Below, piece by piece: positions 1 through 62,005 of a stretch of DNA of 64,000 nucleotides; positions within the stretch are counted from its first letter, which is position 1, and the number at the start of each line of letters is the position of its first letter. The stretch is taken from NCBI GenBank assembly GCA_963707485.1, contig CAVPQS010000065.1:654-64653 (forward strand). Reading direction: 5' to 3'. The notes below the pieces were generated by a model. It saw only the letters and a program-made list of their open reading frames with translations. It ran no database searches and was not told where the DNA came from. The translations under genes were made by a program, and so were the position numbers. This stretch comes from an uncultured bacterium. Lineage in GTDB: Bacteria; Zixibacteria; MSB-5A5; CAIYYT01.

Positions 1-160
1 TGCCGGGGGTGACGTTGCCGAAAATGAAGGTCGAATCGACGGCGGTAATCCTCTGGTTCGGCGCCGGATAGATGACCACGATGCGCGGCGTGTTTTGCGC
101 GGCAACGAAACCGACCAGGAACAAAAATACCACTGCCGTGGGCGCGAGTCTATTAAGCAA
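1..160 (-). CDS. Partial CDS (N-terminus only; runs off the window start): secreted protein of unknown function, probable 4th gene of the murein-peptide operon
   Basis: Reverse-strand reading from TTG at 160..158 gives LLNRLAPTAVVFLFLVGFVAAQNTPRIVVIYPAPNQRITAVDS..., a signal-peptide-like N-terminus. GGAGGAGG lies 6 nt upstream. The start overlaps the stop of the epimerase gene by 8 nt. The ORF is not in the provided track because it is open-ended. Confidence 0.35.
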   Translation of the reverse strand, partial: MLNRLAPTAVVFLFLVGFVAAQNTPRIVVIYPAPNQRITAVDSTFIFGNVTPG

Positions 161-1172
161 GAACAACCTCCTCGGATGTGATGCCGATTCCGGGGCCGCC
201 GGGCAGGACCAGAACATCGGCGTCGAAATGTGCGCCCCAATAGGGATCGTTTTCGGTCAGCATGATGGCGTCGAGGTCGAAATAATCGAACAGCGAAGAC
301 AGGTGCAGGGCGGCGGTGATACCGATTGCCGATTCCAACATGCAGCCAAGCAGCAACTGCAATTTGTGTTCGCGCGCGATTTCCGCCAATGCAATTACGC
401 GCTTGATGCCGCCGTTTTTGGAGAGCTTCAAGTTTACGCCGTTGACGACTTTGTAAAAGCGCTCGATGTCTTTCTCCGCAATGACTGATTCATCGAGGAA
501 TAATTTGCATTCGACCTTGGTTTTGATGCGGTCGAGCTCGCGGACGGTCGGTTCGGCCAATGGCTGCTCATAAAATTCGACCGGATACCCGCGCAGCGCT
601 CTGATGTGCTCGATGGCGTCGTCGCGCGTCCAGCCGCCGTTGGAATCGAGATAGAGCCGTTTCTCGCCCTGCTTGAGGACGAGGTCGATAAACTTGAGAT
701 CGCCGGCAAAACCGACTTTGAGTTTGAGGTTGCGGAACGCCGAGGCCGATTCGAGTTGCCGCATCACGTCGTCATCGGAAGCATGAGTGATCGTAAAAGC
801 GCTGACAGCCTTTTTCGGCGCCGGAAGTTGCAGATATGTATGCAGCGGCAGTTCGAGTTCTTTGGCGAGATGATCGAGCATCGCCATTTCGATGGCGCAG
901 CGGGCGACGTTGAGCGAGGGCGGCAAATTGCCAATGAATTTCTTGAGCGCGGCGACGTTCCAGTCTTCGTGGAATTTTTGCAGACGCTGTTGAGTTAGTT
1001 CGAGGCATTGCTCCGATGAGGCGCCATAGTGAATGGACGACGAACCCTCACCGATGCCGCGTTTGTAGCGCGCAACCAGAGTTTGCTTTTGCGCCGCGCT
1101 GCCTTTCGAAATGTTGAAGGCGCGCTTGAGACGAAGCTCGAGCAATTTCAATTTGACGGCGGAATCAGCCAC
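153..1172 (-). CDS. L-Ala-D/L-Glu epimerase (enolase superfamily; mandelate racemase/muconate lactonizing enzyme (MR/MLE) family dipeptide epimerase)
   Basis: 339 aa with MR/MLE-type motifs (KLKVG, DSNGGW, LFLDES, EQP). Sits in an operon with an LD-carboxypeptidase and an NlpC/P60 peptidase, as in the B. subtilis ykfABC murein-peptide operon. Confidence 0.8.
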   Translation of the reverse strand: MADSAVKLKLLELRLKRAFNISKGSAAQKQTLVARYKRGIGEGSSSIHYGASSEQCLELTQQRLQKFHEDWNVAALKKFIGNLPPSLNVARCAIEMAMLDHLAKELELPLHTYLQLPAPKKAVSAFTITHASDDDVMRQLESASAFRNLKLKVGFAGDLKFIDLVLKQGEKRLYLDSNGGWTRDDAIEHIRALRGYPVEFYEQPLAEPTVRELDRIKTKVECKLFLDESVIAEKDIERFYKVVNGVNLKLSKNGGIKRVIALAEIAREHKLQLLLGCMLESAIGITAALHLSSLFDYFDLDAIMLTENDPYWGAHFDADVLVLPGGPGIGITSEEVVLA

Positions 1173-2103
1173 TGGTAACCTCTTGAAGCAGCGTCAAAGA
1201 GTGGGCGTCGGCATTGAGACGCGCGCGGGCGCCAAACGGAATGGTGATCGACTTATCGCAATGGCCATAGCGAACACCGGTGATGACAGGAATCTCGCGC
1301 CGGAAAATGGTCTTGATGCGTTCGCGAAAAAGCGCGTCATGTTTTTTACTCGAAGTCAACGGAGTTGTTTCACGCCAATCGGTGTCGCCGATGACAACGC
1401 CTTGCACGCCATAGAGCAATCCCGCGAGTTTGAAGTGATTGAGGAAGCTGTCGAGGTGATCCACGGTTTCGTTGACGTCTTCGAAAAACAGGATGGTATT
1501 GTCAAAGCGGGGGAGATAGCCGGTGCCGATAAGCTGCACGAGCGAGAAGAGATTGCCGCCCATGAGGATTCCTTCGGCAGCGCCGGGATTGACGACTTCG
1601 ACATCGTCCTGATTATCCGCGGGGATCAATTCCCTGCCGGTGCAGTCGCCGCAGATGAGCGGCAAGAGCGCGTCGCGGCCGTCGGCATCCATGGCGGCAA
1701 GCAGCGGGCCGGAGAACGTGACGAGACCGGTTTTGACATAGAGAGCGCTCTGGAGAATTGTCAGGTCGGAGAGTCCGATGACGACCTTGGGGCGATTTTT
1801 GACGGCGGCGTAGTCGATGAGATTGAGCAGACGAAGAACGCCGTAACCGCCGCGGCCGGCGATCATGCCTTGAATTTTCGGAGAGCGAAATGCGTCGTTG
1901 ATTTCGGCGGCGCGTTGTTCGTCGGCGGCGGAGAAGCCGTTGTGTTCTGAGTCAAGGAGACGCGAGCCTTCGAGCGTGAAATGTTTTTCCATCAGTGTGG
2001 CGCCATGATTATAGTAGCGCGTCATCGCTTTACCACTCTTGAGCGAGCTAGCAGGAAAGAAAATCTTGAGGCGGCTTTGCTGATGGAGACGCTTGGCGAT
2101 CAT
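1165..2103 (-). CDS. ldcA: LD-carboxypeptidase (muramoyltetrapeptide carboxypeptidase, peptidase S66)
   Basis: 312 aa with an S66-like core (GYGVLRLL, GLSDLTIL, catalytic Ser context). Overlaps its neighbours by 4-8 nt, which indicates an operon. Confidence 0.75.
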   Translation of the reverse strand: MIAKRLHQQSRLKIFFPASSLKSGKAMTRYYNHGATLMEKHFTLEGSRLLDSEHNGFSAADEQRAAEINDAFRSPKIQGMIAGRGGYGVLRLLNLIDYAAVKNRPKVVIGLSDLTILQSALYVKTGLVTFSGPLLAAMDADGRDALLPLICGDCTGRELIPADNQDDVEVVNPGAAEGILMGGNLFSLVQLIGTGYLPRFDNTILFFEDVNETVDHLDSFLNHFKLAGLLYGVQGVVIGDTDWRETTPLTSSKKHDALFRERIKTIFRREIPVITGVRYGHCDKSITIPFGARARLNADAHSLTLLQEVTSG

Positions 2104-2849
2104 GACTCCAGAATCCGTTTGACGGTTGTGATCGCGCCGGCAAGATCGCTGCGGAATTTCGGATGATTTGGGGCGAGCGATTCGAGCGCGACCATTCCAC
2201 GAAGGCGCGAGGCGTGGAGTATCTTGCGGTCAGTAAGAAGAATCGCAACGTGGCCGGGGAAAAATATCAGGTCGCCGGCGACGGACTCTTCGAGAGTCAC
2301 TTCCGTGCCAACGAGGGTCTGGTCCTTACTGTCGCGCGGCAAGTTGACGCCGACTCGACGATAGAGGGTTTGCGTGAAGCCGGAGCAGTCAAAGCCGAGG
2401 CTGGAGCAACCGCCCCACAAGTACGGCGACGACACGAGCGAGATTCCTTCAGCAATAATGCGGTTAAGCGGAACGTCTTCGATGATGTCGAGGCGCCCAA
2501 ACAGCAATATCAATTCGGCGCCGTCGTGTGCGTAAAAAAGGTCGCCGCCTCCGGACGCGATGAGCGAACCGAATGGGAGTACCAGTCGACCGTTGCCGGT
2601 CTGGTCGTCAAGTATGGCGATATTTGATGTGACGACCGTGAGATTGGACTGCGGTTTGTCGGCGGTGACCAGATAGGAAGAGCCGATCCAGCCGCGATAG
2701 CCGTCCTCGGATTCGCAGAGTGCAAATGTGTCCCGGAACTCGAGCTGCTTGACGATGTGGCCGTAGAGCACCTGCGAGACCCGTTCAGAGCGATGATCGG
2801 GAGCACGGCGCATGTCAGCAACGGGAATGATTGGTTGCGCTGGTTGCAT
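2100..2849 (-). CDS. NlpC/P60 family gamma-D-glutamyl-L-diamino acid endopeptidase with N-terminal SH3-like domain
   Basis: 249 aa; C40 catalytic core YLWGGCSSLGFDCSGF (Cys) plus a downstream His context. First gene of the minus-strand operon. Confidence 0.75.
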   Translation of the reverse strand: MQPAQPIIPVADMRRAPDHRSERVSQVLYGHIVKQLEFRDTFALCESEDGYRGWIGSSYLVTADKPQSNLTVVTSNIAILDDQTGNGRLVLPFGSLIASGGGDLFYAHDGAELILLFGRLDIIEDVPLNRIIAEGISLVSSPYLWGGCSSLGFDCSGFTQTLYRRVGVNLPRDSKDQTLVGTEVTLEESVAGDLIFFPGHVAILLTDRKILHASRLRGMVALESLAPNHPKFRSDLAGAITTVKRILES

Positions 2850-3000
2850 GGTCTAAAGGTCGGCAAATGCAAGTCGGGATTCAACAAAAAGGTGTTGTTG
2901 CGTACTGTGTGGAAATACAACTCACTTTCCACCTCTGCGAAGGGGGAATAACGAACAGAGAATGCTGCCGCTGATTCGATCTATTCTCCCCTATCAAGGA

Positions 3001-3123
3001 CTGTTGAAAAAGTCCTCGCCCATGTCATCCTGAACGAAGTGAAGGATCTGCTTCGGTTGCCAATGAACAACTTACAGATTCTTCGCTTCGCTCAGAATGA
3101 CAAGATTCGACTTTTTCAACAGT
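3001..3123. repeat. MITE-like palindromic element (about 48-nt imperfect inverted arms around a 28-nt loop)
   Basis: Outer arms ctgttgaaaaagtc / gactttttcaacag are a perfect 14 nt match. Inner arms gtcatcctgaacgaagtgaaggatc / gattcttcgcttcgctcagaatgac match at 21 of 25 nt. The inner-arm core recurs, 27 nt identical, at 44492-44518. Confidence 0.6.
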
Positions 3124-3406
3124 CACATCAAGGGGAGTGGTTTTGCGTTCGAGGAACGAGAACGCAAAACCGAGGGGTGTCTTTGATTGAGTGACTCCGG
3201 TTTGCTCTGAAGCAGCGTTAGGTCGCCCTCGTTCCGGGTTAGTTGGGTAAGATCGCCGTGAGCTTTCGACGGCGGGACTCGGCAGACCTGACACAACGTG
3301 AATTCCCAGCGCAAACGCTGGGGCGCCTCCGTGAAGTATTTCAGGCGGTAAACAAAAGGCCGGCGAAGAAAAGCTCCACCGGCCTGAATAGACGAGAGTG
3401 GTTCGC

Positions 3407-4441
3407 TTAGAAGGCGAACTTGACCGTGAAATATTGATTATCGTCGAAGCCGGTCACATCGACCTGCTGCCAGGAGTAGTCAAAACTCACGTGCGAGTTG
3501 CCCCAATTGAACTTCACACCAGCGCCGAACGAACCGCCGTACGAGAAATCATCCTGGCTTGAGCCGACGAAACCGCCGCGCAAGAAGAATGTGTCGTTAA
3601 ATCCGTACTCGGCGCCACCCTTGAACTCATCCTGTGAGAAGTTGTTGCTCTGGAAAGTGCCGGAGAGTTCGAGATCGTTTTTCTCGTTGTTCTGCAGCGC
3701 ATTCCAAGCCACGCCAAACTGGATTGAGGAGGGCAGATCGAAACCTTCGCTCTCGGTGCGAACCGTTTTGGGAGCGGAGTTTGGATCGTTGGCATCGGGA
3801 ATGGTCTTGATGTCGAAGCCTGCGCCAGTGAACTGCATTTGCGGTCCAATGTGCTTGACGACGACGCCAAATTTCAGTCCCTGCCAGTTGGGCTGGTAAG
3901 TAAAGCCGAAATCAAACGCTGTTCCGCGGGCGGAGACTTGCTCGACCTTCTCATTGACAAAATAAGCGGTCGCGCCGAAAGACACGCGATCAGTAAACTG
4001 GCGCGCGTAGGTCAGGCCGATGACGGAAAACGTCGGGTTGAAGGTTTCACCACTGGATCCCTGCTGGTCGTCCCAAGTGGTTTTCAACATATCGCCGATC
4101 GAGAGCACCTTGACGGAGGCGCCGAGGGTGCCAAAGCCTTCAACGGTCGTGGTGACGGCGACATATTCGAGGTTCATATCAGCAAAGTACTCGAGATGCG
4201 AGAACATCGCCTCGGTACCAGCCTGATTAGCGGCTCCAGCCGGATTCCAGTAGAGCGCTTCAGCGCCGTAGGAATTGGCGATCATAGCGCCGCCTAAGGC
4301 CGAACCGCGCGAACCGACCGGAATGCGCAATTCCTGGGCTCCGGCGGTTCCGATTTTAATCTCATTGCCGGCGAGGAGCATCGCGCTCGTGAGAATCAGC
4401 AGCGCCGACGAAAGCAAGAATATCTTTTTCATCGTATTCAC
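3407..4441 (-). CDS. porV: PorV/PorQ-family outer-membrane beta-barrel (FadL-like fold), T9SS-associated shuttle/porin candidate
   Basis: 344 aa with a signal peptide. The N-terminal motif GAQELRIPVGSRGSALGGAMIA...EALYWNPAGAA matches the PorV/PorQ family signature. The C-terminal F is typical of OM barrels. Immediately downstream of a T9SS-CTD cargo gene. Confidence 0.55.
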   Translation of the reverse strand: MNTMKKIFLLSSALLILTSAMLLAGNEIKIGTAGAQELRIPVGSRGSALGGAMIANSYGAEALYWNPAGAANQAGTEAMFSHLEYFADMNLEYVAVTTTVEGFGTLGASVKVLSIGDMLKTTWDDQQGSSGETFNPTFSVIGLTYARQFTDRVSFGATAYFVNEKVEQVSARGTAFDFGFTYQPNWQGLKFGVVVKHIGPQMQFTGAGFDIKTIPDANDPNSAPKTVRTESEGFDLPSSIQFGVAWNALQNNEKNDLELSGTFQSNNFSQDEFKGGAEYGFNDTFFLRGGFVGSSQDDFSYGGSFGAGVKFNWGNSHVSFDYSWQQVDVTGFDDNQYFTVKFAF

Positions 4442-4449
4442 TCCTCTCC

Positions 4450-7400
4450 TTAGAAGGTATCCAATTGTTCGACTTCAGGGAAGATCGCCATTTTGCCGAA
4501 CTTTGTTCCCAAGCCATCAGCTTCGATGACCCAAATGTAAATACCGGAAGCGACCCAAAGGCCGGCTTCGGTTTTGATATCCCAAACGAATTCGGGATCA
4601 GAAGTGCCTCCGCTTCGCTCCAGCGTGCGCACGAGATCACCGGCGATATTGTAGATTTTGATCTTCATCGCCTGATTAGGAGGAAGATTTATGAACTTGA
4701 TGATGCGATCAAACTGGTCGATTTCTTCCGGATAGAAAGCGTAGTACGGATTGGGCACTGTTTTGACCTGATCAAGACTGTTGGTAATGAGAACATCGTC
4801 GCCACTGGCGGCTTCCGGCTTCACCGTCGTGAAAGTATATCTCACGGCCGGATTGTTCGGATTATTCTTCGTTATTATCAGCTTCTGTCCATCCGCAAGT
4901 TCATCCGCCGGTACATGACCGGGACGGATGCGCGGCCACAGGGAGTAAAGAACGTCCATATCGGCGGCGTCGTTGCTCATGTTCTGCGAGGCGTAAGTCG
5001 GATCGGGGTTGCCGGTGTAAGTACTGTTCATGATGAACAAATACTCGCGTCCGGTGCCATCCTCATCACATGGGAGCCAGGTAGAATCGAAGCAGGGATC
5101 GCCGTATTGCTCCGCAATTAAGACGTTCAGTTGACGTTCCGGAACAGTACTGACATCCCAAGCGGTGAATGGGACGTCAAAAAAGCCATTGTAACAGTAA
5201 CTTCCGCCGCAAAGGGGTGTGCCACTGCGAAGATAGAAATGACCCTTCTGCGTTGTTGTGAAGCTCCAACGAATTTCGACGTTTTTGTAGTCGAGTGGAC
5301 CTACACTTGAGCCAAAGAAGTCTGCTCCATTTCCGAGTGCCCCGAAGAATTGCGGCAGGCCGGTATCCACGCCGGTGATCCAGCGAGTGCCTACCCATTC
5401 GTAGCCCTTGATGCCCGGCGTCGGTCCGACAACGCGAACCTGGATTCCTTCGACAACGGGATACCCGTAATCGTCGGCCTGGGTTGCGATACTATCGAGC
5501 AGAAGCGTTCCGGTCGTCAGATTCTTGAGGTTCCAGGTCAGATCTTCGTTGAAGGTAACTTCATAATCATCCCCGGTGACGTCACCGGGATTGATATACT
5601 CTACAGTCGTCACTCCATCGCTGCTGCCTTCCGGTTCTTGCGTTGCAGTTTGGCTCAGAGCGCCGACAAAGGTATACGGCTTGACTACAAACGGAATAAG
5701 AGGACTTTCCAGCGTCTCCGTGATGTAACCCAGGAAGTTTCCACTGGCGTCGTCGAATGGTGTAATATTCAGATAATCGTATGAATAAGCCGTCACTGCG
5801 AAGTAGTACGGCTGGTTGTTCTTCAGCGGTACTCCCGTTATTTGGCTATTTGTGAATGTCTGATTGTAGACCAATCCGGAGTTTGACCCTTTCTGAAGGA
5901 TAATTCTTTGTGAACCACCAGCAGATGCGTCGACAACGTCACCGTATATCAACGATACTGGTTCTTCCTGATCATCCACGGCGAGATCGTAAGTGGCAAA
6001 TTTGGTCCAGGGACCGTTTGCAGATTCACCTTGATACAGGTTGTATCCTTCAAAATGGAATTCCTGGCCTAGCTTCGCGTTAGCTTCGACATTTCCGACT
6101 GGTTCGGTTCCCCAGATCATCTCAACCGCTCCGTCCAAGCCACGCAGAAATACTGACGGCGATGGCGGCGGATCCGGGATGTCAAAGTTAAGATCAAATA
6201 CGGCCTGTGCGGCAACGTCAGCCGCCTTCAAAGCGGAAATCGAATTCAACGGGCTCGAACCCTGGGCGACGATAACGGCCGCGACCACTTCCTGAGTATC
6301 GCCGACGGCCATCGTAAACGGACCGGCAGACATCATGTAGCGGCGGTCGGCGGAGGCTTCATCAAGCCATCCGGTTTGCGTTACCGGATCACCGGAGACA
6401 GCATAAGTGGTAATAGCGCTGTCGGCTTCATTATAAGTATGGGTCGGAACCATATCGCCAGTTGCCGGGTCTTTGGTGAGACCCTGCATGTAGCCGTAAG
6501 TTTCCACACGGCTGGCAGGATCGGTACCATTGATGTACTTGTTAAATGACGCCATTGGCAGGTTTCTAAAGCCCTGGCGCCATTCTCCGTTTACCAGTGC
6601 GGAGTCGCCTTCAGACGGGACAATCGGTCCCTCGAAGAAGTCGAATCCAACGGCGGGCGGAGCCGCACCATAGTTAGCATCATCGCCTTCGTTGTAACAA
6701 TAGCCCAATGACAGCAGCGTGTCGCAACCGACCAAGTCGTCGGAGGCGTTACCAAGATCGGGGTCGGCCCAGAGGGAGATATAAGTGTCTCTCAGGTCGT
6801 TCGCGCCTTTATTGATGATTTTGTACTTGAAGAACACGGTGTTTCCAAGTGCGCCACCGCGCGCGAAGGCGAAGGCAGACATTTGCACCTCGAGACCAAG
6901 CGGGGCTGTGCTGGCGGCATTGTTGATGTGGCCAGCCGGGTCGGCATCATTAAATACTGACCAAGCCATTTGATTGCCAAGAATCAACGGTTGACCGAGC
7001 GAATCTACCGGAGCGCCCTGCTCTACCGGCCAGTTCGCGTAGTCCGGATTCGAGGAGGCGTCGTCGCCTTTAGCAACCTTATAAACTCGGAATCCGGCAT
7101 TATCAGTTTGATAGGTCCCGTCTGCCATCGGACCGGGAGTAAACTCCGATGAGTATTCGGCGATGGCGAGGCGGATCGAATCCGGACCGGTTCCTACCTT
7201 TGCGCCGATCCAGAGACCGGCGGAGTAGATGACGGTCTTCTTGGTTCCACGCGGGAAGTAGAGACCGTCAGTCTTGCCCAGCACGTTGGCATTATCATAG
7301 GCAAAGTTACCGTCGTTATAGACAAACATTTCGAGGTTGTTAATATCTATACGGGTATCAGTGTCGAGGATTAATGCCGTCTGCGAGCCATGCCACTTCC

Positions 7401-7515
7401 CAGTAACGTTACTGAGACCCCACGCGACCGTGGTCATCAACAGGAACATCAGCAGGGAATAGAATAATCTCGTTTTCTTCATCAGCTTCCTCCTGAAGCG
7501 TTCAGGTTCATTCAC
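4450..7515 (-). CDS. Large secreted protein (1021 aa) with C-terminal T9SS sorting domain (Por_Secre_tail-like); N-terminal domain paralogous to the protein at 56560..58773
   Basis: Signal peptide. C-terminus VPNPYY...MKIKIYNIAGDLVRTLE...FVWD...ASGIYIWVIEADG...KFGKMAIF fits the T9SS CTD pattern (PNPF.. / IYD.xGR.V / WDG / SGVYFY / KK). The N-terminal ~300 aa align with the 737-aa protein (SEFTPGPMADG / SEFSPGPIGSNG; ANWPVEQGAPVDSLGQPLILGNQ / RNWPASDGAPVDALGRPLIKGSQ; FNDAD; PDLG / PDIG). Confidence 0.7.
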   Translation of the reverse strand: MNEPERFRRKLMKKTRLFYSLLMFLLMTTVAWGLSNVTGKWHGSQTALILDTDTRIDINNLEMFVYNDGNFAYDNANVLGKTDGLYFPRGTKKTVIYSAGLWIGAKVGTGPDSIRLAIAEYSSEFTPGPMADGTYQTDNAGFRVYKVAKGDDASSNPDYANWPVEQGAPVDSLGQPLILGNQMAWSVFNDADPAGHINNAASTAPLGLEVQMSAFAFARGGALGNTVFFKYKIINKGANDLRDTYISLWADPDLGNASDDLVGCDTLLSLGYCYNEGDDANYGAAPPAVGFDFFEGPIVPSEGDSALVNGEWRQGFRNLPMASFNKYINGTDPASRVETYGYMQGLTKDPATGDMVPTHTYNEADSAITTYAVSGDPVTQTGWLDEASADRRYMMSAGPFTMAVGDTQEVVAAVIVAQGSSPLNSISALKAADVAAQAVFDLNFDIPDPPPSPSVFLRGLDGAVEMIWGTEPVGNVEANAKLGQEFHFEGYNLYQGESANGPWTKFATYDLAVDDQEEPVSLIYGDVVDASAGGSQRIILQKGSNSGLVYNQTFTNSQITGVPLKNNQPYYFAVTAYSYDYLNITPFDDASGNFLGYITETLESPLIPFVVKPYTFVGALSQTATQEPEGSSDGVTTVEYINPGDVTGDDYEVTFNEDLTWNLKNLTTGTLLLDSIATQADDYGYPVVEGIQVRVVGPTPGIKGYEWVGTRWITGVDTGLPQFFGALGNGADFFGSSVGPLDYKNVEIRWSFTTTQKGHFYLRSGTPLCGGSYCYNGFFDVPFTAWDVSTVPERQLNVLIAEQYGDPCFDSTWLPCDEDGTGREYLFIMNSTYTGNPDPTYASQNMSNDAADMDVLYSLWPRIRPGHVPADELADGQKLIITKNNPNNPAVRYTFTTVKPEAASGDDVLITNSLDQVKTVPNPYYAFYPEEIDQFDRIIKFINLPPNQAMKIKIYNIAGDLVRTLERSGGTSDPEFVWDIKTEAGLWVASGIYIWVIEADGLGTKFGKMAIFPEVEQLDTF

Positions 7516-7517
7516 CC

Positions 7518-10376
7518 TTAGAACATTAAGCGCAGGCCGAGACGGACCTGACGCGGCGTATCGTAACTGCCCGGATTATTCTGCTTGAAGGTGTACTTCG
7601 CAAGACCCTCTTCACCGTAGTTGTTAAGGAATTCTTGTCCGGGAGCAGTCGACAGCCAGCCGGTGTTATCAGCACGGCCAGTACCCTCGTAAACATCCAA
7701 TGCGTTCTCGGTGTCGAAAATATTGATTACCCAAAGGTAAACATCAAAAGTGAGACGAGCGAGCTCAAAGGCTTTGCTGGCCTTGAGATCGAGTCTATAG
7801 GTCCACGGGCCGGTCCGCGAGTTGATCTTTCCGATTGGGGTCGGGTTCGTTGACGCCAGCGAGATTTCATTATAAACCTCGACCGGAGTGTACGGAGTGC
7901 CCGATCCGGCGCGGAAGACGAAGTTGATACCGGCGTTTTCGAACGGGTGCATGTTGCCCAGCTTGGGACCCTGGCCGGCGCCGGCGCGAACGTCGACAAT
8001 AGCCGTGATTTTGTGCCGCTGATCGTAGTCGAGCGGCGAAATACGAATCGGGCGCTCGGAGTTAACCCAGGCAACGTTGCCCTGCGAAGTCGCATAGGAA
8101 CCGGTACCGGCAGCATACGAAAGCGAGTAATTCAACTCGGCTGCGACCGAACGGGTACGGCGCATTTTAAGGGCGAAATCCAGACCCTTGATGGTGCCGA
8201 AGTCGTGGTTGCGATAGGTCGCAAATGCGTTCGGCGAGGAGGGCTGGTTGATTACTTCGGTCTGGCCATTAACGTCTTTGTAGTAAGCTGTGACGTTAAG
8301 GCTCGTGAAGTCACCCAACTGGTGGGCGAGGCCGACTTCGTAAGCCGTCGTTTCTTCGGGCTCAAGATTCGGATTGCCGATAGGCGCGTAGTACGGGGCG
8401 TCCGCGACCATTCGTTCGAGGAAGCGAGTGCCAACGTAGAGGTACTGCAATTCCGGGCGCTGGAAGAACTTGCCGTAGTTCACATGGAATACGGTGCGGT
8501 CGGAGACCGGAAAACCAACGCCGAGACGCGGAGATACCTTCTGTTCGGCCTTTGCCGGTTCGAAATCGCCATCGTCGAGTTTTGTGGCATTGAGGATCTC
8601 TTCATTGGTGTGCGAACCCGGATCGGCCAGAATGTTTGTCGGGTCGAGCGGACGCTCTTCGTTTTTCAAGCGATCGGTATTAGCGTTCAGGTAGTCGTAA
8701 CGAATACCGGCATTAACCACCAGTCCTTCGAATTCGAACTTATCCTGAAGATAAACCGCGAACATATACGGCTTCTTGGCGCCGTCGGGACCGTCATCGA
8801 CATTGCTTTGGCCGGTCTTGTCGTAGCCAAAGAAGTTGGCATCACTCCAGGACGTGCGATCAAACTCGATGGGGTCGGTGATGGTAGTGTCGATTTTGGT
8901 CGGGTCAAGATGATCATAATAACGCAAGTTGTGGCGTTCGAATTCGGCGCCAAACTGCATTTCGTTATATTCGTTGACCTGGCTGGTCAGATCGAAGTTG
9001 ACGCCGACATAGGACGAACTGCGTTTGAGCACATCTTCCCAAACGTGGCCTTCGTCTGCGGCCGTAGCCGGATCGTCGCCGATCCAGAACAAGTTGGTGG
9101 GGTCGAAGTTCGGGTTGCCACCGGGACGGCTGTAACCAAGAATGTCATCCCAAATGGTTTCATCGCCGCGGAATCTCTTCGTCAGGTAGTAGGTACCGCC
9201 CAACTCAAAGAAGGTCTTTGGCGAGATGTTATTCGTCCACTTGCCGTAGTAGGAATAGTTCTCGTCGAGATAGCGCGGAGCATGGCTGCCATTGAAATAG
9301 TAGTTCATGCGGAACTCGCGCCACTCTTCGTAGCTGCCGAGAGTTCCAAAACGCAGCACGTTCTGTTTGTTCAGATCGTAACGCAGTTTGCCTTGCCAGC
9401 TCCAGCCGGACAAGTCGTTGTGCGGTAAAATTCCATCAGCAATCGCACGGGGTTGACGATCGCCGAGACGGCGGCGTTCCATCGATGCGAAAAAGCTGGC
9501 TTTATCGTTATTGGGAAGAATCGGACCGTCAAGGTTGAAGGCGAGGACATTGTAATTGAAGCGGCTGTCCGAACCCATGAACTCATCGGTTGATGCTTCA
9601 AAGGCGCCGGAATACTCCTTGGCGCCTTCTTTGGTGGTAACGTTGATTGCGCCGGAAGAAATCCAGCCGTATTCGGCGTTGAAACCGCCGGTCGAAATCG
9701 AGATTTCTTCGATAGCATTGTTATTGATGGCTGTTGTCGACATGTTGGTCAACGGATCCTGTTGAGAGAAACCGTCGACGAAATAGGCGACGTCACCCTG
9801 ACGACCGCCGCGGATGTTGAGCGCGGGCTGGTTGCTCTGCTCGCGACCGCCGCGGGTACCGACTGCGGAAGCTTCCACGTTTTCGGAATACGCGACGACA
9901 CCGGCGGACAGACCGACAACGTCGGTATAACCGCGGGTGGGAAGTTGCTGAATTTCGTCACCAGAGACGATTTTCAGCGACTTGGTTTGATCGAGGATGA
10001 TGAGGGGACGTTCAGCAATAACGACCTGAACTTCGCCAGTGAGAGATTTTGAGGATAATTGGAAATCTGCATTCGTGGTGAGATCGACCGAGACGCCAAG
10101 TCCCTGCAATTCCACCGGAGCATATCCAATTAGTTCTGCTTTCAGAGTGTATTGACCAACGGGGACGTTCAAGATAAAGAACTTTCCTTCGACGTCGGTT
10201 AACGCTCCCATTGTGGTGCCGACGATTGTCACCGCCACACCGGGAAGAGCGGATCCCGTTTCCTTGTCGGTGACTTTTCCGCTGATTTTGCCGACGGTAG
10301 CCGCCTGTGCAAAGACGCAGAGTGCCATGACGAGGATGAGGATCAGAGCTACTTTTGGTTTAAGATTCAAAACCAA
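7518..10376 (-). CDS. TonB-dependent receptor with N-terminal carboxypeptidase-regulatory-like (CarbD) domain
   Basis: 952 aa; signal peptide; CarbD motif GKVTDKETGSALPGVAVTIVGT...TDVEGKFFI; plug domain; C-terminal RLGLRLMF (terminal Phe). The start is TTG, preceded by AGGAGG. Confidence 0.85.
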   Translation of the reverse strand: MVLNLKPKVALILILVMALCVFAQAATVGKISGKVTDKETGSALPGVAVTIVGTTMGALTDVEGKFFILNVPVGQYTLKAELIGYAPVELQGLGVSVDLTTNADFQLSSKSLTGEVQVVIAERPLIILDQTKSLKIVSGDEIQQLPTRGYTDVVGLSAGVVAYSENVEASAVGTRGGREQSNQPALNIRGGRQGDVAYFVDGFSQQDPLTNMSTTAINNNAIEEISISTGGFNAEYGWISSGAINVTTKEGAKEYSGAFEASTDEFMGSDSRFNYNVLAFNLDGPILPNNDKASFFASMERRRLGDRQPRAIADGILPHNDLSGWSWQGKLRYDLNKQNVLRFGTLGSYEEWREFRMNYYFNGSHAPRYLDENYSYYGKWTNNISPKTFFELGGTYYLTKRFRGDETIWDDILGYSRPGGNPNFDPTNLFWIGDDPATAADEGHVWEDVLKRSSSYVGVNFDLTSQVNEYNEMQFGAEFERHNLRYYDHLDPTKIDTTITDPIEFDRTSWSDANFFGYDKTGQSNVDDGPDGAKKPYMFAVYLQDKFEFEGLVVNAGIRYDYLNANTDRLKNEERPLDPTNILADPGSHTNEEILNATKLDDGDFEPAKAEQKVSPRLGVGFPVSDRTVFHVNYGKFFQRPELQYLYVGTRFLERMVADAPYYAPIGNPNLEPEETTAYEVGLAHQLGDFTSLNVTAYYKDVNGQTEVINQPSSPNAFATYRNHDFGTIKGLDFALKMRRTRSVAAELNYSLSYAAGTGSYATSQGNVAWVNSERPIRISPLDYDQRHKITAIVDVRAGAGQGPKLGNMHPFENAGINFVFRAGSGTPYTPVEVYNEISLASTNPTPIGKINSRTGPWTYRLDLKASKAFELARLTFDVYLWVINIFDTENALDVYEGTGRADNTGWLSTAPGQEFLNNYGEEGLAKYTFKQNNPGSYDTPRQVRLGLRLMF

Positions 10377-10862
10377 ACCTCCTGTTAATGAATTGAATTC
10401 GTACGCAAAAGTGCGAAGTCGTTAAAGAACAGATTCAAATTCCTACCTCCTGTAGAAGTTGTGGGTTAATCACTTCAAAAACTTGAATTTCCTCCATCAC
10501 CAAGGACGCGGAAAACCGTACGCCGTGTATCCTTTTATCCGGTTAAGAACTGTCGCAAGAGCTAATGAGGAGGCGGCCAGCCGGAAATCCATTTTGCCTA
10601 ATTGCTTGCCGCACAATGAGATGTGTCTTGCTCCGTCGATCCTTGCCGGAGTAGGATAAAAGCTATGCTGATATCTTGATTTGAAAATTGTCTCGTCCAC
10701 GTTTAATGTCAACATAAAACTTTAGGCTAACTATAAGTCAGATCAGCGCTTTAGTGATTTGATCGACCATTTGGGGTAATTGCTTTAGCGGCTTTTGAAC
10801 AGATTTGTGAGATTTTTGAACAACGATGTGCGAAAAATGGAACGAAAATAGAGGCTAATTAG

Positions 10863-11592: not shown

Positions 11593-12405
11593 TCAATCAT
11601 TTGCGAGTCGATCTCGATACGATTTGAGTTCGTCTTCGCTTAATTCGTTCGCGGCGACAAGTCGATACTGCCGTTCGGTACTGACCCTCAAGCCATCGAC
11701 AGTCATTTCAAACAAAAAAACAGCTATGAGGTCCTCTTGAACATACTGGGCGGCAACCGGCTTGCAGACAAGCGCGGGATATTTGGCAGCGCATAATTCG
11801 CAGTCTTGTTCAATCTGGACCACGCCAATTCTGTCCGAACGCCCTTTCGCTTGAACGGGCACAATGTAATGGACGCCTGACCTGTCAACTCCGACATACA
11901 TTTCATCCGTTTCAACCTGGCCGATACTCGCGACGGAAGTTCGGAGATGGCTTTGCAGTGAATAACAAGTAATGCCGAGAAAAATATCGATTAATCGATT
12001 GTACCTAAGTTTTGCAAGAAGACTCTGCTCGTCATTCAGAGCGTACTTGACGACGATGGCCGGCGTTGCGTCCGGGATCTTGGTCTCAGCGCGATTGGGG
12101 TCCGGACGAACATGGACGATTCGGTTCAGCTTAAATTCGTACCGAGCTCTTCCTGTCCCTCGAATTATCCACTCCCAGCCTTTTGGCGCTTTCTTTAGGA
12201 TCGAGGCAGGGAGATTGCTTCGATAGCGGAAGCTGTAAATTATGTCGCCAAGATTCTTGGGGAGCTTGATCTTGAGTCGCTTGGCAATCGCCTCTATTTC
12301 ATCCCGCGTAAATTCAATTGAGCTTGCGCCCTCTGAATAGTTGTCGAAGAAGAGTTTTTCGACAATTAGTGTATAGCGATTCTTACTAACATCTTGTGGC
12401 GACAT
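11593..12405 (-). CDS. Putative type II restriction endonuclease (cognate R subunit of the adjacent methyltransferase)
   Basis: 270 aa from ATG at 12405 (MSPQDVSKNRY...). The ATG lies 1 nt after the TAA of the upstream methyltransferase, which implies translational coupling. Possible PD-(D/E)xK-like segment VGVDRSGVHYIVPVQAKG. No confident family assignment. AT-richer than the flanking genes. Confidence 0.4.
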   Translation of the reverse strand: MSPQDVSKNRYTLIVEKLFFDNYSEGASSIEFTRDEIEAIAKRLKIKLPKNLGDIIYSFRYRSNLPASILKKAPKGWEWIIRGTGRARYEFKLNRIVHVRPDPNRAETKIPDATPAIVVKYALNDEQSLLAKLRYNRLIDIFLGITCYSLQSHLRTSVASIGQVETDEMYVGVDRSGVHYIVPVQAKGRSDRIGVVQIEQDCELCAAKYPALVCKPVAAQYVQEDLIAVFLFEMTVDGLRVSTERQYRLVAANELSEDELKSYRDRLAND

Positions 12406-12406
12406 T

Positions 12407-16463: not shown

Positions 16464-16568
16464 ATCGAGTTGGTCCTTCTCGCCGGCAAAACGACGGCCT
16501 CAAATAACATCACAACACGTACGAGTGCCAATTGAGTCATCTTTGAAAAATCGCAGGCGGTTCGGCAG

Positions 16569-21594: not shown

Positions 21595-21639
21595 AGCACG
21601 ATTGGCGCTGTGTGCCGTTATAATCCCAGACATGTTGTT

Positions 21640-44491: not shown

Positions 44492-44540
44492 GATTCTTCG
44501 CTTCGCTCAGAATGACAATGTTCTGTTTTTCCACAGCCTA
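44492..44540. repeat. Solo arm of the MITE-like palindromic element family
   Basis: 27 nt gattcttcgcttcgctcagaatgacaa identical to 3077-3103, plus a degenerate outer arm (tgttctgtttttccacag versus gattcgactttttcaacag). Confidence 0.5.
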
Positions 44541-58837: not shown

Positions 58838-61800
58838 TTACTTGAGCAGGACCAGTTTGCTGACCAGGGAAATGCCGCCCGCTTGCAAGCGTACGAAGTA
58901 AATGCCGGTGCCGAGCGTGCGTCCGAAATTGTCGTCGCCGTCCCAGGTGGCATAATACGATCCGACGCGCTGATTGCCGGAGAAGATCGTTTTGACCTGC
59001 TGGCCAAGGATGTTGAGTATTTCGAGAGAGACTTCGCCGGAATTGGCAAGGCTGTATGGAATCGCAGTTGAAATGTTGAACGGATTCGGAAAATTCTGTT
59101 CGAGCTTGTATTCACTCGGCAAAACCGGGCTATCGACCGGATAGACGGGCGTCGCAGCGCCGACGGCGATTGATCCGCCCAGACTGTGCGCTGCAAAAGT
59201 CATCAGAGTCGAATCACACACTGTCGCGGACGGACTGATGGTGCATTCGCCTTCGATGGCGGAATCCTGCACGGTCAGGTAGACATAGGCGATTGGTCCG
59301 GCGCCGACGGGAATCGCGAGCGATTCATTTTGCGACTCGATAGCAACCTCGGTGGCGCCGAGAGTTTGCGATGAAATGATGCTGAAATCGAGTTTGCCCA
59401 TGGCGCGTCCTGCGGCAGTAACGGAATCGACGCGAAGAGCGGCATCGTCAAATTGCAGGGCGATGGCCATGCTGTCGACGGGAACAAAATTGTGGAGGGC
59501 AATTTCCATTTCAGTGGCGCTGCCGGGAATGGCGTTGCCGGATGATAGACTTAGTGTATCGACGGGGACTACGTTCAAGGTTATCGGCAGCAAGAACGGC
59601 GAATTCCCTGCCTGAGCGGAGGTAATGGTCAATTGGCCGGTGTATTCCCCGGCGGCAAGTGATGTCGCATCGACAATAACTTGCGCTGTTGTGCTGTCGC
59701 CGCCATTGGCGGGATTGATCGAGAGCCACGGTTGATTTGCAACCGCCGTCCAGTTCAGGCCGTCGGCGCCGCAGTTGTTGATTATGACATCTATGGTGTC
59801 GAAGTCCGCGATGCCGCTGCGCGAGATCGCATTCAGAATTAACGGTGAAGTACAGATCGCCGGTGGCGGTGGAGTTACGCTTGCATGAACAGTCAAGTTT
59901 TTGGGCGAATTGTAGGCGTTGGGATCGGAGATCGACAACGTGGTGTAATGTTCGCCTTTGGTGAGAATTCCGGGTTGAATGCCGATGTTGACGACCGCGT
60001 CGCCGAAGCCATCTTCGGTATCGATTGTAACCCAGATCGCGTCGGCGGCAATGAGCCAGTCGATTGTTCCGGCGCCGGTGTTGAAAATCACGAGTTCTTG
60101 AGTGGCAATCGTCGAGGCATTGGCCGCAAAACTAAAATGCACAGTATCGGGATCGACGGAAATCATCGGAACATCGGTGGAGTGCGACAGATTAACGGTA
60201 AATTGTTGCGGCGAATTGACCGCTTGCGGCGAGGTAATGCTCAAGTTTGCCGTGTAGTCACCGGTGCCGGGGAGCGAATCGGGGTAGAAAATCAAGTCAA
60301 TTGCCGATGGCGCAGCTCCTGAGAGCTGCGACAGTCCCAGCCAATTCGGCTTGCCGGTAATTGTCCAGTCTACCGTGCCTGAGCCGGAATTCTCAATCAT
60401 GAAATATTTGTCATCCGGCGGCGGTGTTCCGAGTTGCGTCTCGACGGATACCGAGCCGGGCGTGATTTTCAACGTCGGCGCGGTGATTGTCAAAGCGACA
60501 ACCGCTGTGCGCGAGGAATCCTTGCCGGTCGCATCAGCGATCGTGATTCTGCCGGAGTATTCGCCGTACGCGAGTCCGGCTATATTGACAGAGACAATCG
60601 CCGTCGTCGGCGCAGCGCCGGAAGTCGGCGTTACCGAGAGCCAGGCCTGATTATCGGTTGCGGTCCAGTTGAGAATGCCGTAGCCGGTGTTGTTGATGAG
60701 CAAACTTTGCGAGGCGGGATTGCTGCCGCCGAGTTGCGCGTTGAACTGAAACGAATTCGGCGAAATGACAATAGCGGGCGCACCGTACTCGGTGATGCGC
60801 GCGAAGACATCGAAGCTGCCGTTGCGGTCGTCAGTCCACGTGTAGTAGATGTTGATGCCATCCATCGTGACATTCGGAAATGACTGCGTGCTTGTGGTCG
60901 CATCGGTGTTGACGCGGTAATTGCCGCCGAGGATGTTGCCGTCGGCTTTGAAATACTGCGCGAAAATATCGTTGTTCCCCTGCCGGTCATCGCGCCAGGC
61001 GGTGATGAAATTGCCGAAATAATCCATGCCGACCACGACCTCGGCTTGCGAGCCGTTGGCGCCGTCGCTGTTGATGCGATAGTTCGCGCTGCGGCTGTCG
61101 CCGTTCGCCCAATAGTTGCGGCCATAAACGTCGGCATTATTCGGATAGTTACCGTTGCGATAATCGATCCAGACGACGGTGAAATTACCGGCGTAATCGC
61201 AGGCGACATCGGGGACGACACATTTGTTGCCGGTAAGATTGTCGCTGATCAGAAAATTCGTGTTTTGCGCGACGCCGGAGGCGTTGTAGCGCTGGCCCAT
61301 AATCAAGTCGAGCCCCTGCCGGTTGTCGTACCAGACCACGACGAAATCGCCGTCGCCATCGACTGCAACTTTGGGGTTGTGTTGATAGGCGGCGCCCGCG
61401 TCATCGTTGATGCGGAAATTCACGCCGAGTTTGGCGCCGGATTTATGATAGCGCTGTCCGTAGACATCGTAATTGCCGTTGCGGTTGTCCTCCCAGACGA
61501 GGACGTAGTTGCCGAAATCATCGGCGTCGATATCCTGCCAGCCTTGTGTTTCCACGCCAAAATCGTCGTTGATTTTGGTATTCGCTGCGGCTGCCGAGCC
61601 GTCGGCATTGTAACGCTGGCCGTAGATGTCGGCATTGAAGGGATAGCCGGTGACGCGGTAGTCCTGCCACGCGACGACGAATTTGCCGAGTTGGTCTTTC
61701 ATCATCGAGGGGCGGAATTGTTCGTTGCCGATCGGGTCGTCGTTGACGCGGCGGTTTGTTCCCTGCCGCGTGCCGAGCCGGTCGAAAAGCTGGATGTAAA

Positions 61801-62005
61801 TATCATTATCGCCGTTGCGTTTGTCGTACCAGCAGACGACGAAGTTGCCCTCGAGGTCGGTGGCGATATTGGAGTAGCCCTGATAGCTCATTCCGAAGTC
61901 GTCGTTGACGCGGAAGTCCGGGACATTGCCGGCGTCCGAGTCAAGGAACCAGAGAATGCAGGTCAGGAAAAAGCAGAGTAATGCCAAACGCGCTTTCATG
62001 CGCAT
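58838..62005 (-). CDS. T9SS-sorted surface protein: 7-bladed beta-propeller repeat + 4 Ig-like (BACON-like) domains + cohesin-like module + Por_Secre_tail CTD
   Basis: Signal peptide. Seven ~50-aa repeats (RxNDD...GNFVVVWxDxRNGNxD(I/V)YGQRY). Repeated ~100-aa Ig-like domains (NTGxGxLxWT). A ~145-aa segment AIPGSATEMEIALHNFVPVDSMAIALQFDDAALRVDSV...GAGPIAYVYLTVQ fits the cohesin pattern. Canonical T9SS CTD: LEQNFPNPFN...LEILNILGQQV...WDGDD...GIYFVRL...KLVLLK. Confidence 0.8.
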   Translation of the reverse strand: MRMKARLALLCFFLTCILWFLDSDAGNVPDFRVNDDFGMSYQGYSNIATDLEGNFVVCWYDKRNGDNDIYIQLFDRLGTRQGTNRRVNDDPIGNEQFRPSMMKDQLGKFVVAWQDYRVTGYPFNADIYGQRYNADGSAAAANTKINDDFGVETQGWQDIDADDFGNYVLVWEDNRNGNYDVYGQRYHKSGAKLGVNFRINDDAGAAYQHNPKVAVDGDGDFVVVWYDNRQGLDLIMGQRYNASGVAQNTNFLISDNLTGNKCVVPDVACDYAGNFTVVWIDYRNGNYPNNADVYGRNYWANGDSRSANYRINSDGANGSQAEVVVGMDYFGNFITAWRDDRQGNNDIFAQYFKADGNILGGNYRVNTDATTSTQSFPNVTMDGINIYYTWTDDRNGSFDVFARITEYGAPAIVISPNSFQFNAQLGGSNPASQSLLINNTGYGILNWTATDNQAWLSVTPTSGAAPTTAIVSVNIAGLAYGEYSGRITIADATGKDSSRTAVVALTITAPTLKITPGSVSVETQLGTPPPDDKYFMIENSGSGTVDWTITGKPNWLGLSQLSGAAPSAIDLIFYPDSLPGTGDYTANLSITSPQAVNSPQQFTVNLSHSTDVPMISVDPDTVHFSFAANASTIATQELVIFNTGAGTIDWLIAADAIWVTIDTEDGFGDAVVNIGIQPGILTKGEHYTTLSISDPNAYNSPKNLTVHASVTPPPPAICTSPLILNAISRSGIADFDTIDVIINNCGADGLNWTAVANQPWLSINPANGGDSTTAQVIVDATSLAAGEYTGQLTITSAQAGNSPFLLPITLNVVPVDTLSLSSGNAIPGSATEMEIALHNFVPVDSMAIALQFDDAALRVDSVTAAGRAMGKLDFSIISSQTLGATEVAIESQNESLAIPVGAGPIAYVYLTVQDSAIEGECTISPSATVCDSTLMTFAAHSLGGSIAVGAATPVYPVDSPVLPSEYKLEQNFPNPFNISTAIPYSLANSGEVSLEILNILGQQVKTIFSGNQRVGSYYATWDGDDNFGRTLGTGIYFVRLQAGGISLVSKLVLLK

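Follow-up and report, generated by a model that had tools for sequence, protein, structure and literature searches.

What joins a TonB-dependent receptor to a large secreted protein and a small outer-membrane barrel, so that their genes should stand together? The question is raised by a locus on contig CAVPQS010000065.1 from an uncultured bacterium of the Zixibacteria lineage, of which a stretch of 64,000 nucleotides (nt), called the window here, was analyzed. Three genes of the minus strand encode an Oar/CarbD-type TonB-dependent receptor, a large protein that we call BIG, and a PorV/PorQ-family barrel. A preliminary description of this DNA had read them as an operon and a nutrient-capture unit, in which the surface component is delivered by T9SS, the type IX secretion system. 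We also infer a nutrient-capture function for the three-gene cassette. With a probability of roughly one half, it is a SusCD-like unit for capture and uptake, whose surface partner reaches the cell surface by the route of C-terminal sorting domains (CTDs) and sits on a cognate PorV-like barrel, the likely substrate being cell-wall debris.

The genes are listed below, as the longest open reading frames (ORFs) and from the likely starts, with lengths in amino acids (aa); residues of BIG are numbered on the 1021-aa ORF throughout.

10376..7518, minus strand: TonB-dependent receptor, longest ORF, 952 aa
7518..10370, minus strand: Oar/CarbD-type TonB-dependent receptor from the likely start, TTG at 10370, 950 aa
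7515..4450, minus strand: large surface protein BIG, longest ORF, 1021 aa
4450..7482, minus strand: BIG from the likely start, ATG at 7482, about 1010 aa
4441..3407, minus strand: PorV/PorQ-like barrel, longest ORF, 344 aa
3407..4432, minus strand: PorV/PorQ-family 14-strand outer-membrane barrel from the likely start, ATG at 4432, 341 aa
3357..3385, minus strand: intrinsic terminator-like hairpin, 12-bp stem with 8 GC pairs, then TTTGTTT

Inspection of the ORF positions confirmed three co-directional genes where they had been placed. The later starts are preferred for all three because of the Shine-Dalgarno spacing, the signal peptides, and NCBI's gene calls for the same species (950, 1010, and 341 aa for receptor, BIG, and barrel, respectively). 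The gaps of 2 and 8 nt reported before are correct for the longest possible ORFs, and they become 35 and 17 nt with the likely starts; GGAGG precedes each gene, and the spacing is still tight. The hairpin begins 22 nt past the stop codon of the barrel gene. Such a terminator immediately behind the barrel gene speaks for a three-gene unit, and from this layout we infer a single operon of receptor, BIG, and barrel.

To survey the linkage, one genome per species was scanned, which gave 575 confirmed loci; the best 80 were studied with 8-kb flanks and are cited by number (L001 and so on) where needed. Their labels were Zixibacteria, Eisenbacteria, Latescibacterota, Gemmatimonadota, and Bacteroidota, and several were labelled 'uncultured Ignavibacteria'. 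A PorV-like gene lay directly downstream of the CTD-type BIG homologue in all loci with enough flank (60 of 60), and a receptor gene directly upstream in 53 of 55; the remaining two were artefacts of a coordinate threshold, with the receptor present. Order and strand of receptor, BIG, and barrel were constant across loci, and the cassette was found in Zixibacteria, Eisenbacteria, and metagenome-assembled genomes labelled Latescibacterota, Gemmatimonadota, and Bacteroidota. The three-gene arrangement is conserved far beyond chance, and the synteny on which the preliminary description depended is kept in related genomes. A control is provided by BIG homologues whose match is confined to the first ~700 residues and which end, according to precomputed Pfam annotation, in a type I dockerin. 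A receptor or barrel gene was found beside 0 of 8 to 0 of 10 of these paralogues with intact flanks; therefore, receptor and barrel travel with the CTD module and not with the N-terminal module. Two other, unrelated CTD proteins, at L038:13543-16131 (863 aa) and L052:927-3395 (823 aa), are each followed directly by a PorV-like gene (16398-17393 and 3431-4417, respectively); directly upstream of these pairs, no gene for a cassette-type receptor was detected. These pairs suggest that 'cargo plus private barrel' is a general rule in these phyla. Full-text literature searches gave no description of the cassette, nor of T9SS in Zixibacteria.

The barrel was assigned by profile and by fold. It scored 164.7 bits against a cut-off of 90 with NF033709, the NCBIfam model of the PorV/PorQ family (aa 33-344, model positions 2-326), and an identical protein is named 'PorV/PorQ family protein [Candidatus Zixiibacteriota]' in NCBI. 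It scored below the equivalog cut-offs of PorV (NF033710, 62 against 250), PorQ (NF033711, 87.7 against 220), and PorV2 (63.6 against 325). When a profile of 26 homologues was compared with the PDB, PorV of F. johnsoniae was found at E=6.9e-15, and the next match was TodX of the FadL family at 0.15. The AlphaFold model of the barrel (predicted local distance difference test, pLDDT, 81.8) matched PorV best, with a template modelling (TM) score of 0.69 and E=6e-14 to 8gl6_F, a T9SS translocon structure, and TM 0.68 to 6h3i_F; FadL, TodX, and BamG of Bacteroidota trailed at TM 0.46-0.58. The PorV/PorQ-like identity given in the preliminary description is thereby upheld, and the generic FadL transporter named there as the contrary outcome was not what profile and fold returned. 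A cognate partnership with BIG agrees with the constant position of the barrel gene beside CTD-type genes, and 'anchor' suits the data better than the 'shuttle' proposed before.

The receptor likewise proved to be of the CarbD type, since extension, plug, and barrel all exceeded their Pfam cut-offs: CarboxypepD_reg (PF13620, aa 31-108) with 63.1 bits against 32.3, Plug (PF07715) with 37.5 against 23.9, and the TonB_dep_Rec barrel (PF00593) with 99.8 against 27. A signal peptide is followed by the CarboxypepD_reg N-terminal extension, the TonB-box-like EVQVVIAERP, the plug, and a 22-strand barrel; EVQVVIAERP is a putative TonB box. Membership of the SusC/RagA family was rejected, as TIGR04056 reached 63 bits against a cut-off of 368 and aligned only at model positions 2-209.

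BIG belongs to a large family without annotation, of which a word-indexed search found at least 3889 relatives and an exhaustive search at least 3903 clusters at 50% identity (E<=1e-30). Its signal peptide, MKKTRLFYSLLMFLLMTTVAWG, was read by eye from the sequence; it is of the Sec/signal peptidase I type and ends in AWG with no Cys, so that there is no lipobox. A SusD/RagB lipoprotein was rejected for BIG, which has no SusD or RagB match in Pfam, no lipobox, and a model that is almost all beta (AlphaFold2, pLDDT 78.7). The statement that the surface partner is something other than a SusD lipoprotein was thus borne out. The parts of the protein are as follows.

aa 50-445, nt 7368..6181, minus strand: N-terminal beta-supersandwich (model and Foldseek)
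aa 446-615, minus strand: FN3-like region
aa 616-705, minus strand: mid region
aa 706-905, nt 4801..5400, minus strand: variable domain, of allele class A in the window
aa 906-1021, nt 4453..4800, minus strand: C-terminal sorting/anchoring domain (CTD)

In the first 900 aa, no Pfam match was found among 25 family members even at E<=10, and no sequence match was found in the PDB. Foldseek related the N-terminal ~400 residues, with probability 1.0, to the non-catalytic beta-supersandwich N-domains of GH116, GH94, GH149, and dextran dextrinase, and a viral structure library added the GH65 supersandwich. The predicted N-terminal supersandwich thus matches a fold of the carbohydrate-binding type. 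Other Foldseek matches were generic supersandwich, FN3, and Ig-type folds, with weak matches to S-layer and adhesin repeats. This N-domain is the best conserved part of BIG (65-82% column identity), and residues 690-900 are the least conserved (39-50%).

The C-terminus of BIG resembles the sorting domains of T9SS cargo at scores below the curated cut-offs: 19.3 bits against 27 for FlgD_ig in Pfam and 18-21 against 23 for TIGR04183, with E=1.2e-5 to the PorZ C-terminus. Among relatives the resemblance recurs. All 15 aligned family C-termini matched TIGR04183 (best E=9e-6) and the PorU CTD weakly, 12 of the 15 matched the PorZ CTD, and FlgD_ig was matched in 22 of 25 family members; the best PDB sequence match of the CTD was the PorU CTD at E=0.01. 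The aligned C-termini carry the motifs PNPY, IxIYNxxG, ASGIY, and GKxAxF. After the last CTD strand comes a family-specific conserved tail, [FT]EVEQLxx[FY]-COOH (4453-4480, minus strand, in the window), which ends in an aromatic residue and is reminiscent of the beta-signal of outer-membrane proteins or of a docking strand. Assignment of the CTD to the T9SS type A class is plausible, at scores below threshold. The 1021-aa protein of the preliminary description is a candidate T9SS cargo, with a signal peptide, type-A-like motifs, and weak CTD matches, and with a CTD score under the curated cut-off.

A second CTD protein is encoded at 58838..62005 on the minus strand (1055 aa, BACON domains followed by a FlgD_ig/Por_Secre_tail CTD), with no adjacent PorV-like gene or receptor; beside it, at 56560-58773, lies a 737-aa gene without a Pfam match. 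This second protein shows that the organism makes general use of C-terminal sorting domains, and it suggests a general CTD export route.

Between N-domain and CTD, BIG is a mosaic, a feature that goes beyond the preliminary description. Residues 706-905 fall into two allele classes with ~20% identity between and 45-93% within a class, whereas receptor, N-domain, CTD, and barrel of close relatives are 62-96% identical to the copies in the window. The class of the variable domain cuts across the tree of the N-domain, and the same classes occur in dockerin-type paralogues. For example, BIG of L004 and of the window share 83% identity in the N-domain and 80% in the CTD but 22% in the variable domain, and the variable domain of L004 shares 69% identity with its counterpart in the dockerin paralogue L032. 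These conflicts and this sharing mean that the variable domain is swapped between lineages and paralogues by recombination; its role may lie in substrate specificity or in antigenic variation. For aa 616-905, a set of discrete non-homologous cassettes was considered and rejected, since homology links all copies and only aa 706-905 form the two deep classes.

The substrate was approached through the neighbouring genes. In the window, a block of murein-peptide genes with overlapping ends spans positions 1..2849 of the minus strand, downstream of the cassette.

2849..2100, minus strand: NlpC/P60+SH3b endopeptidase (NLPC_P60 and SH3_16, above Pfam cut-offs)
2103..1165, minus strand: LD-carboxypeptidase S66 (Peptidase_S66 N and C domains, above Pfam cut-offs)
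1172..153, minus strand: L-Ala-D/L-Glu-epimerase-like MR_MLE protein (MR_MLE_C, above Pfam cut-off)
160..1, minus strand: N-terminus of a 620-aa Amidase_3 protein with signal peptide, running off the window edge

The amidase N-terminus in the window is 58% identical to that of L001, and the Amidase_3 domain of family representatives was above the Pfam cut-off. The amidase has a signal peptide, and the NlpC/P60, LD-carboxypeptidase, and MR_MLE proteins have none. In NCBIfam the block was matched at the level of families, and equivalog scores were under the cut-offs for LdcA (152 against 378), L-Ala-D/L-Glu epimerase (101.6 against 500), the DgcA racemase (151.6 against 400), and AmiA (73.9 against 400).

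ORFs of all 80 loci were clustered, and Pfam was run on the representatives. Peptidoglycan enzymes adjoined ~30 of ~61 cassettes, compared with 0 of 12 loci of dockerin paralogues. The linked families, which occur in at least three independent arrangements, were Amidase_3, NlpC/P60, LD-carboxypeptidase, L-Ala-D/L-Glu epimerase, and S13 DD-peptidase. The NlpC/P60-LdcA-epimerase block of the window follows the cassette in L001-L013 and L018 as well, and in this clade it stands between the barrel gene and Amidase_3. In other Zixibacteria clades (L019, L029, L035, L041, and L063), 0-100 nt separate the barrel gene from the start of Amidase_3 downstream. An S13 DD-peptidase and LdcA follow the barrel gene in a group labelled Eisenbacteria or Bacteroidota (L033, L034, L043, and L068), and NlpC/P60 is found upstream of the cassette in seven loci of the Eisenbacteria type. 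In several lineages the Amidase_3 or S13 peptidase gene overlaps or abuts the barrel gene. That five enzyme families recur here, arranged in three or more ways, argues for a functional link to peptidoglycan fragments, and the cassette probably scavenges fragments of bacterial cell walls. This link is new with respect to the preliminary description.

Two further components were noted near these enzymes. A CUT1-type ABC transporter (SBP_bac_1 and two BPD_transp_1 permeases) lies on the opposite strand directly after Amidase_3 in several Zixibacteria clades (L001-L013, L019, L029, and L063, at ~14.8-19 kb in locus coordinates), beyond the left edge of the window; it could carry the sugar part of muropeptides across the inner membrane. 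In L062, L067, L068, L072, L075, L079, and L050 (~3.1-4.9 kb), a protein of ~420-450 aa is encoded between the NlpC/P60 gene and the receptor. Its weak match to PopA-family porins (66 bits against a cut-off of 150) is consistent with a fourth outer-membrane component, which it may be in the Eisenbacteria-type lineage.

Gene content, families, folds, conserved linkage, and the co-occurrence of the CTD with barrel and receptor are established here; surface location, anchoring, direction of import, and substrate are proposed. According to the capture-and-uptake model, BIG would pass the inner membrane by Sec, after which its T9SS-type C-terminal beta-sandwich would bring it to the surface. The CTD would be neither cleaved nor linked to lipopolysaccharide and would stay non-covalently bound to the neighbouring PorV/PorQ-like barrel as its membrane anchor, with the PorZ CTD on PorQ and the PorU CTD on PorV as models. 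At the surface, the conserved N-terminal supersandwich and the swappable variable domain would bind the substrate and hand it to the adjacent Oar/CarbD-type receptor, which would import it with TonB energy. The substrate would consist of fragments (muropeptides) of the peptidoglycan of dead cells. The stem peptide would be removed by the exported Amidase_3 and then broken down in the cytoplasm by the LD-carboxypeptidase, a YkfC-like gamma-D-Glu-diamino-acid endopeptidase, and an L-Ala-D/L-Glu epimerase.

Several known systems resemble parts of this scheme. In SusC/SusD and RagA/RagB, too, the gene of a CarboxypepD_reg-extended TonB-dependent receptor lies directly upstream of that of a surface-exposed partner, and the presumed common role is capture and import of oligomeric nutrients. 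The cassette differs in that its receptor is outside the SusC family (TIGR04056 63 against 368) and that BIG, unlike the SusD/RagB lipoprotein, is an all-beta protein of ~1010 aa that lacks a lipobox and carries a CTD at its end. The cassette also has an obligatory third gene, that of the PorV-like barrel, and the dockerin paralogues show that the N-domain of the partner can occur without a receptor. Anchoring has closer parallels. The PorZ CTD is retained on PorQ, and cognate PorV-like barrels have been proposed to shield CTDs from cleavage (PMC10202324). In PorQ-PorZ and PorV-PorU, a type-A-like CTD protein is held uncleaved on a PorV-family barrel (PMC10202324), as would be the case in the cassette, whose CTDs match the C-termini of PorU and PorZ and whose barrel has PorQ as its best equivalog match. 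Unlike PorZ and PorU, BIG is unrelated outside the CTD, and its pair is tied to a TonB-dependent receptor; binding in the cassette is predicted from gene adjacency. Type-B cargo genes cluster with PorP/SprF genes, and in the SprB-SprF type the barrel encoded beside the cargo is the proposed anchor (PMC10202324), as in the cassette; the cassette CTD, however, is type-A-like, its barrel is PorV/PorQ and not PorP/SprF, and SprB-SprF has no receptor. BamG, a 14-strand FadL/PorV-like barrel, is a platform for the large extracellular lipoprotein BamH (PMC12578637) and was among the fold matches of our barrel, below PorV; BamH is wedged by its N-terminus, and there is no BamA context at the cassette.

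As for the substrate, YkfA/B/C and LdcA/YcjG form a cytoplasmic route for murein peptides. The enzyme types of B. subtilis YkfA/YkfB/YkfC and E. coli LdcA/YcjG are those encoded downstream of the cassette without signal peptides, joined there by an exported Amidase_3, and they differ in that the cassette neighbours all score below equivalog cut-offs. No CTD-type surface protein or PorV-like barrel is known from Ykf/LdcA/YcjG or from the Xanthomonas transporter NixC. NixC is a TonB-dependent transporter implicated in uptake of peptidoglycan degradation products (PMC4173781) and is in this respect similar to the proposed importer.

Other explanations of the locus were weighed against uptake. BIG could form a surface coat, adhesin, or antigen, held like an S-layer on the barrel, with a variable domain driven by phages or predators, a receptor that is incidental or a scaffold, and neighbours that serve envelope housekeeping. 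T9SS-exported S-layer proteins are known in Tannerella, and two deeply divergent internal allele classes swapped by recombination are typical of exposed antigens; the weak fold matches to S-layer and adhesin repeats and the presence of MreB and envelope genes near the Eisenbacteria loci point the same way. We nevertheless regard a coat or antigen as unlikely. The receptor beside every CTD-type locus with enough flank, across phyla and with a 35-nt coupling, argues for joint function, and the high conservation of the N-terminal supersandwich (65-82%) indicates a conserved ligand or partner and not pure antigenic variation. The overlap or abutment of Amidase_3 or S13 peptidase genes with the barrel gene in several lineages is also poorly accounted for.

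The direction of transport could instead be outward, the Oar-type receptor exporting BIG and the PorV-like barrel holding it, in a display system and not an importer. Oar is required for TonB-dependent secretion of the protease PopC in Myxococcus xanthus (PMC6434023), and the receptor has the architecture of the Oar subclass, with PF13620 extension, plug with TonB box, and barrel; the likeness is one of architecture, and the Oar system differs in that PopC has neither a CTD nor a PorV-like partner. The strict tie of the receptor to CTD-type proteins, its absence at dockerin-type paralogues, and the putative status of a T9SS translocon in this organism would also fit. Export through the receptor is quite improbable in our judgement, given the type-A motifs of the CTD and the receptor-less CTD protein at 58838..62005, which point to a general CTD export route, and given the cargo/barrel pairs of L038 and L052 without a detected cassette-type receptor directly upstream. 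In addition, a multi-domain beta protein of ~110 kDa is ill-suited to a plugged 22-strand barrel, and catabolic peptidoglycan enzymes alongside suit import better. A very improbable reading is that the 341-aa barrel is a FadL-type channel, which carries a hydrophobic or amphipathic substrate in parallel to the receptor and makes no contact with the C-terminus of BIG. PorV itself belongs to the FadL superfamily, several barrel homologues have precomputed Toluene_X (PF03349) matches, and FadL and TodX were the next-best fold matches. They were inferior to PorV in profile (0.15 for TodX against 6.9e-15) and in fold (TM ~0.55 against 0.69), and the NF033709 score exceeds its cut-off. Moreover, barrel and CTD co-occur perfectly, no barrel stands beside dockerin-type paralogues, and further pairs of CTD protein and PorV-like genes exist.

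Several observations count against capture and uptake of cell-wall debris by a CTD-anchored partner. The CTD in the window is below the curated cut-offs of TIGR04183 and FlgD_ig and carries a tail atypical of T9SS CTDs, the barrel is under both the PorV and the PorQ equivalog thresholds, and no T9SS core genes (SprA/Sov, PorK-N, or PorU) were seen within the 64-kb window. No peptidoglycan-binding domain (LysM, SPOR, or SH3b) was detected in BIG, and because dockerin paralogues keep the N-domain without a receptor, this domain is not just a lid for the receptor. Within 8 kb, half of the cassettes lack a peptidoglycan enzyme, and some adjoin a two-component system. In the window, the terminator and a 557-nt spacer part the cassette from the peptidoglycan genes. 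Some of the gene order is simply inherited, as a CoaE-transketolase-aminotransferase block recurs upstream, and the association in Zixibacteria may partly reflect such inheritance and not independent events; MreB near the Eisenbacteria loci means that the neighbourhood could reflect cell-envelope housekeeping.

A broader proposal, to which we give only tentative credence, is that TonB-dependent barrel, PorV-like barrel, and CTD protein form one obligate complex, a new class of outer-membrane machine widespread in uncultured phyla of the Fibrobacterota-Chlorobiota-Bacteroidota (FCB) group. As an importer, this complex may take up peptidoglycan (necromass), with a secretion-system adaptor as permanent anchor and the variable domain setting specificity; as an exporter, it may be Oar-like and TonB-powered, displaying its cargo independently of a canonical T9SS translocon. 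What is understood of TonB-dependent transporters with surface partners comes almost only from the SusCD/RagAB lipoprotein systems of Bacteroidota. The cassette suggests that sister phyla solved the partner problem otherwise, by CTD-route delivery and a private PorV-like clamp, and if so, the roles of the PorV family would widen from parts of shuttle and attachment complexes to permanent anchors of nutrient-uptake machines. BIG represents an uncharacterised family of at least 3,900 clusters at 50% identity. If the enzyme link is functional, the loci would qualify as candidate 'peptidoglycan utilisation loci' of bacteria from sediment and groundwater and bear on the recycling of microbial necromass. 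The two-allele variable domain, which moves between differently anchored paralogues, offers a natural experiment in modular surface-protein design.

The region upstream of the receptor contains the following elements.

10377..10862, minus strand: 5' leader/promoter region with a conserved TTGACA box at 10712..10707 and three GGAGG boxes
10385..10438, minus strand: 17-codon upstream ORF, MNLFFNDFALLRTNSIH*, with its own AGGAGG 7 nt upstream

About 330 nt of the leader is conserved in 9-13 relatives. The duplicated Shine-Dalgarno-plus-start motif described earlier, ACAGGAGGT-N6-TTGAATCT, is real and lies at 10453..10431 and 10385..10363, so that the copies are 68 nt apart and not 60. The possible 17-codon upstream ORF was likewise found, at 10438..10385. 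Its TAA stop comes directly before the Shine-Dalgarno sequence of the receptor, and its first 8 nt duplicate the receptor start. Among 13 leaders of relatives, seven have the ORF at the same position with 16-17 codons (an in-frame 3-nt indel), a TTG start, and the same placement of TAA; in four the start is CTG, and in two the ORF is absent. The seven include leaders of receptors with only ~66% identity, and the peptide itself is divergent in sequence. This pattern fits a coupling or leader ORF that would have arisen from the duplicated initiation region of the receptor. A riboswitch, for which a search upstream had been suggested, was not found: Rfam at E<=1 gave only a spurious mir-1677 match on a repeat element, RNAalifold on nine leaders gave -9.9 kcal/mol with almost no covariation, and the single-sequence fold had z = -0.35. 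A possible CUUUUG/CAGGAG pairing, which would sequester the Shine-Dalgarno sequence, is invariant. No consensus sigma-70 site was found, and a sigma-54 promoter was rejected because its TGGC-N-TAGC motif is not conserved in this stretch.

The repeat element with the spurious Rfam match is a small palindromic one that occupies 2986-3137 of the spacer behind the cassette, with core arms at 3024-3048 and 3077-3101. Inverted repeats of CTGTTGAAAAAGTC flank its core, GTCATYCTGARCGAAGYGAAGRATC. Another copy of the core occurs at 44492-44516, after the LptD gene, where zero matches are expected by chance. Contig JBATEE010000028.1 of a sister assembly stops ~230 nt past the barrel gene, probably at an assembly break in or near the spacer with this element.

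Two adjoining genes on the plus strand encode proteins with type I dockerin repeats at their ends, a 1016-aa secreted protein with no other domain (18453-21503) and a secreted M1 aminopeptidase (21610-23793). No paralogy of BIG with the 1016-aa protein was found, and no cohesin partner for the dockerin proteins was seen in the window. Together with the dockerin that takes the place of the CTD in BIG paralogues, they point to a second, cohesin-type system of surface anchoring in a diderm candidate phylum.

On the minus strand at 11593-13753, a DNA methylase gene (N6_N4_Mtase, 448 aa) and a hypothetical gene stand between the genes for an E2 acyltransferase and LipB. Counterparts of the two are absent from all related loci, in which the E2 and LipB genes adjoin, and this region is probably a strain-specific insertion, possibly a remnant of a restriction-modification system. 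Near the right end of the window, a fragment of an IS200/Y1-type transposase was found at 62204-62827 (minus strand), where the GC content falls to 0.49.

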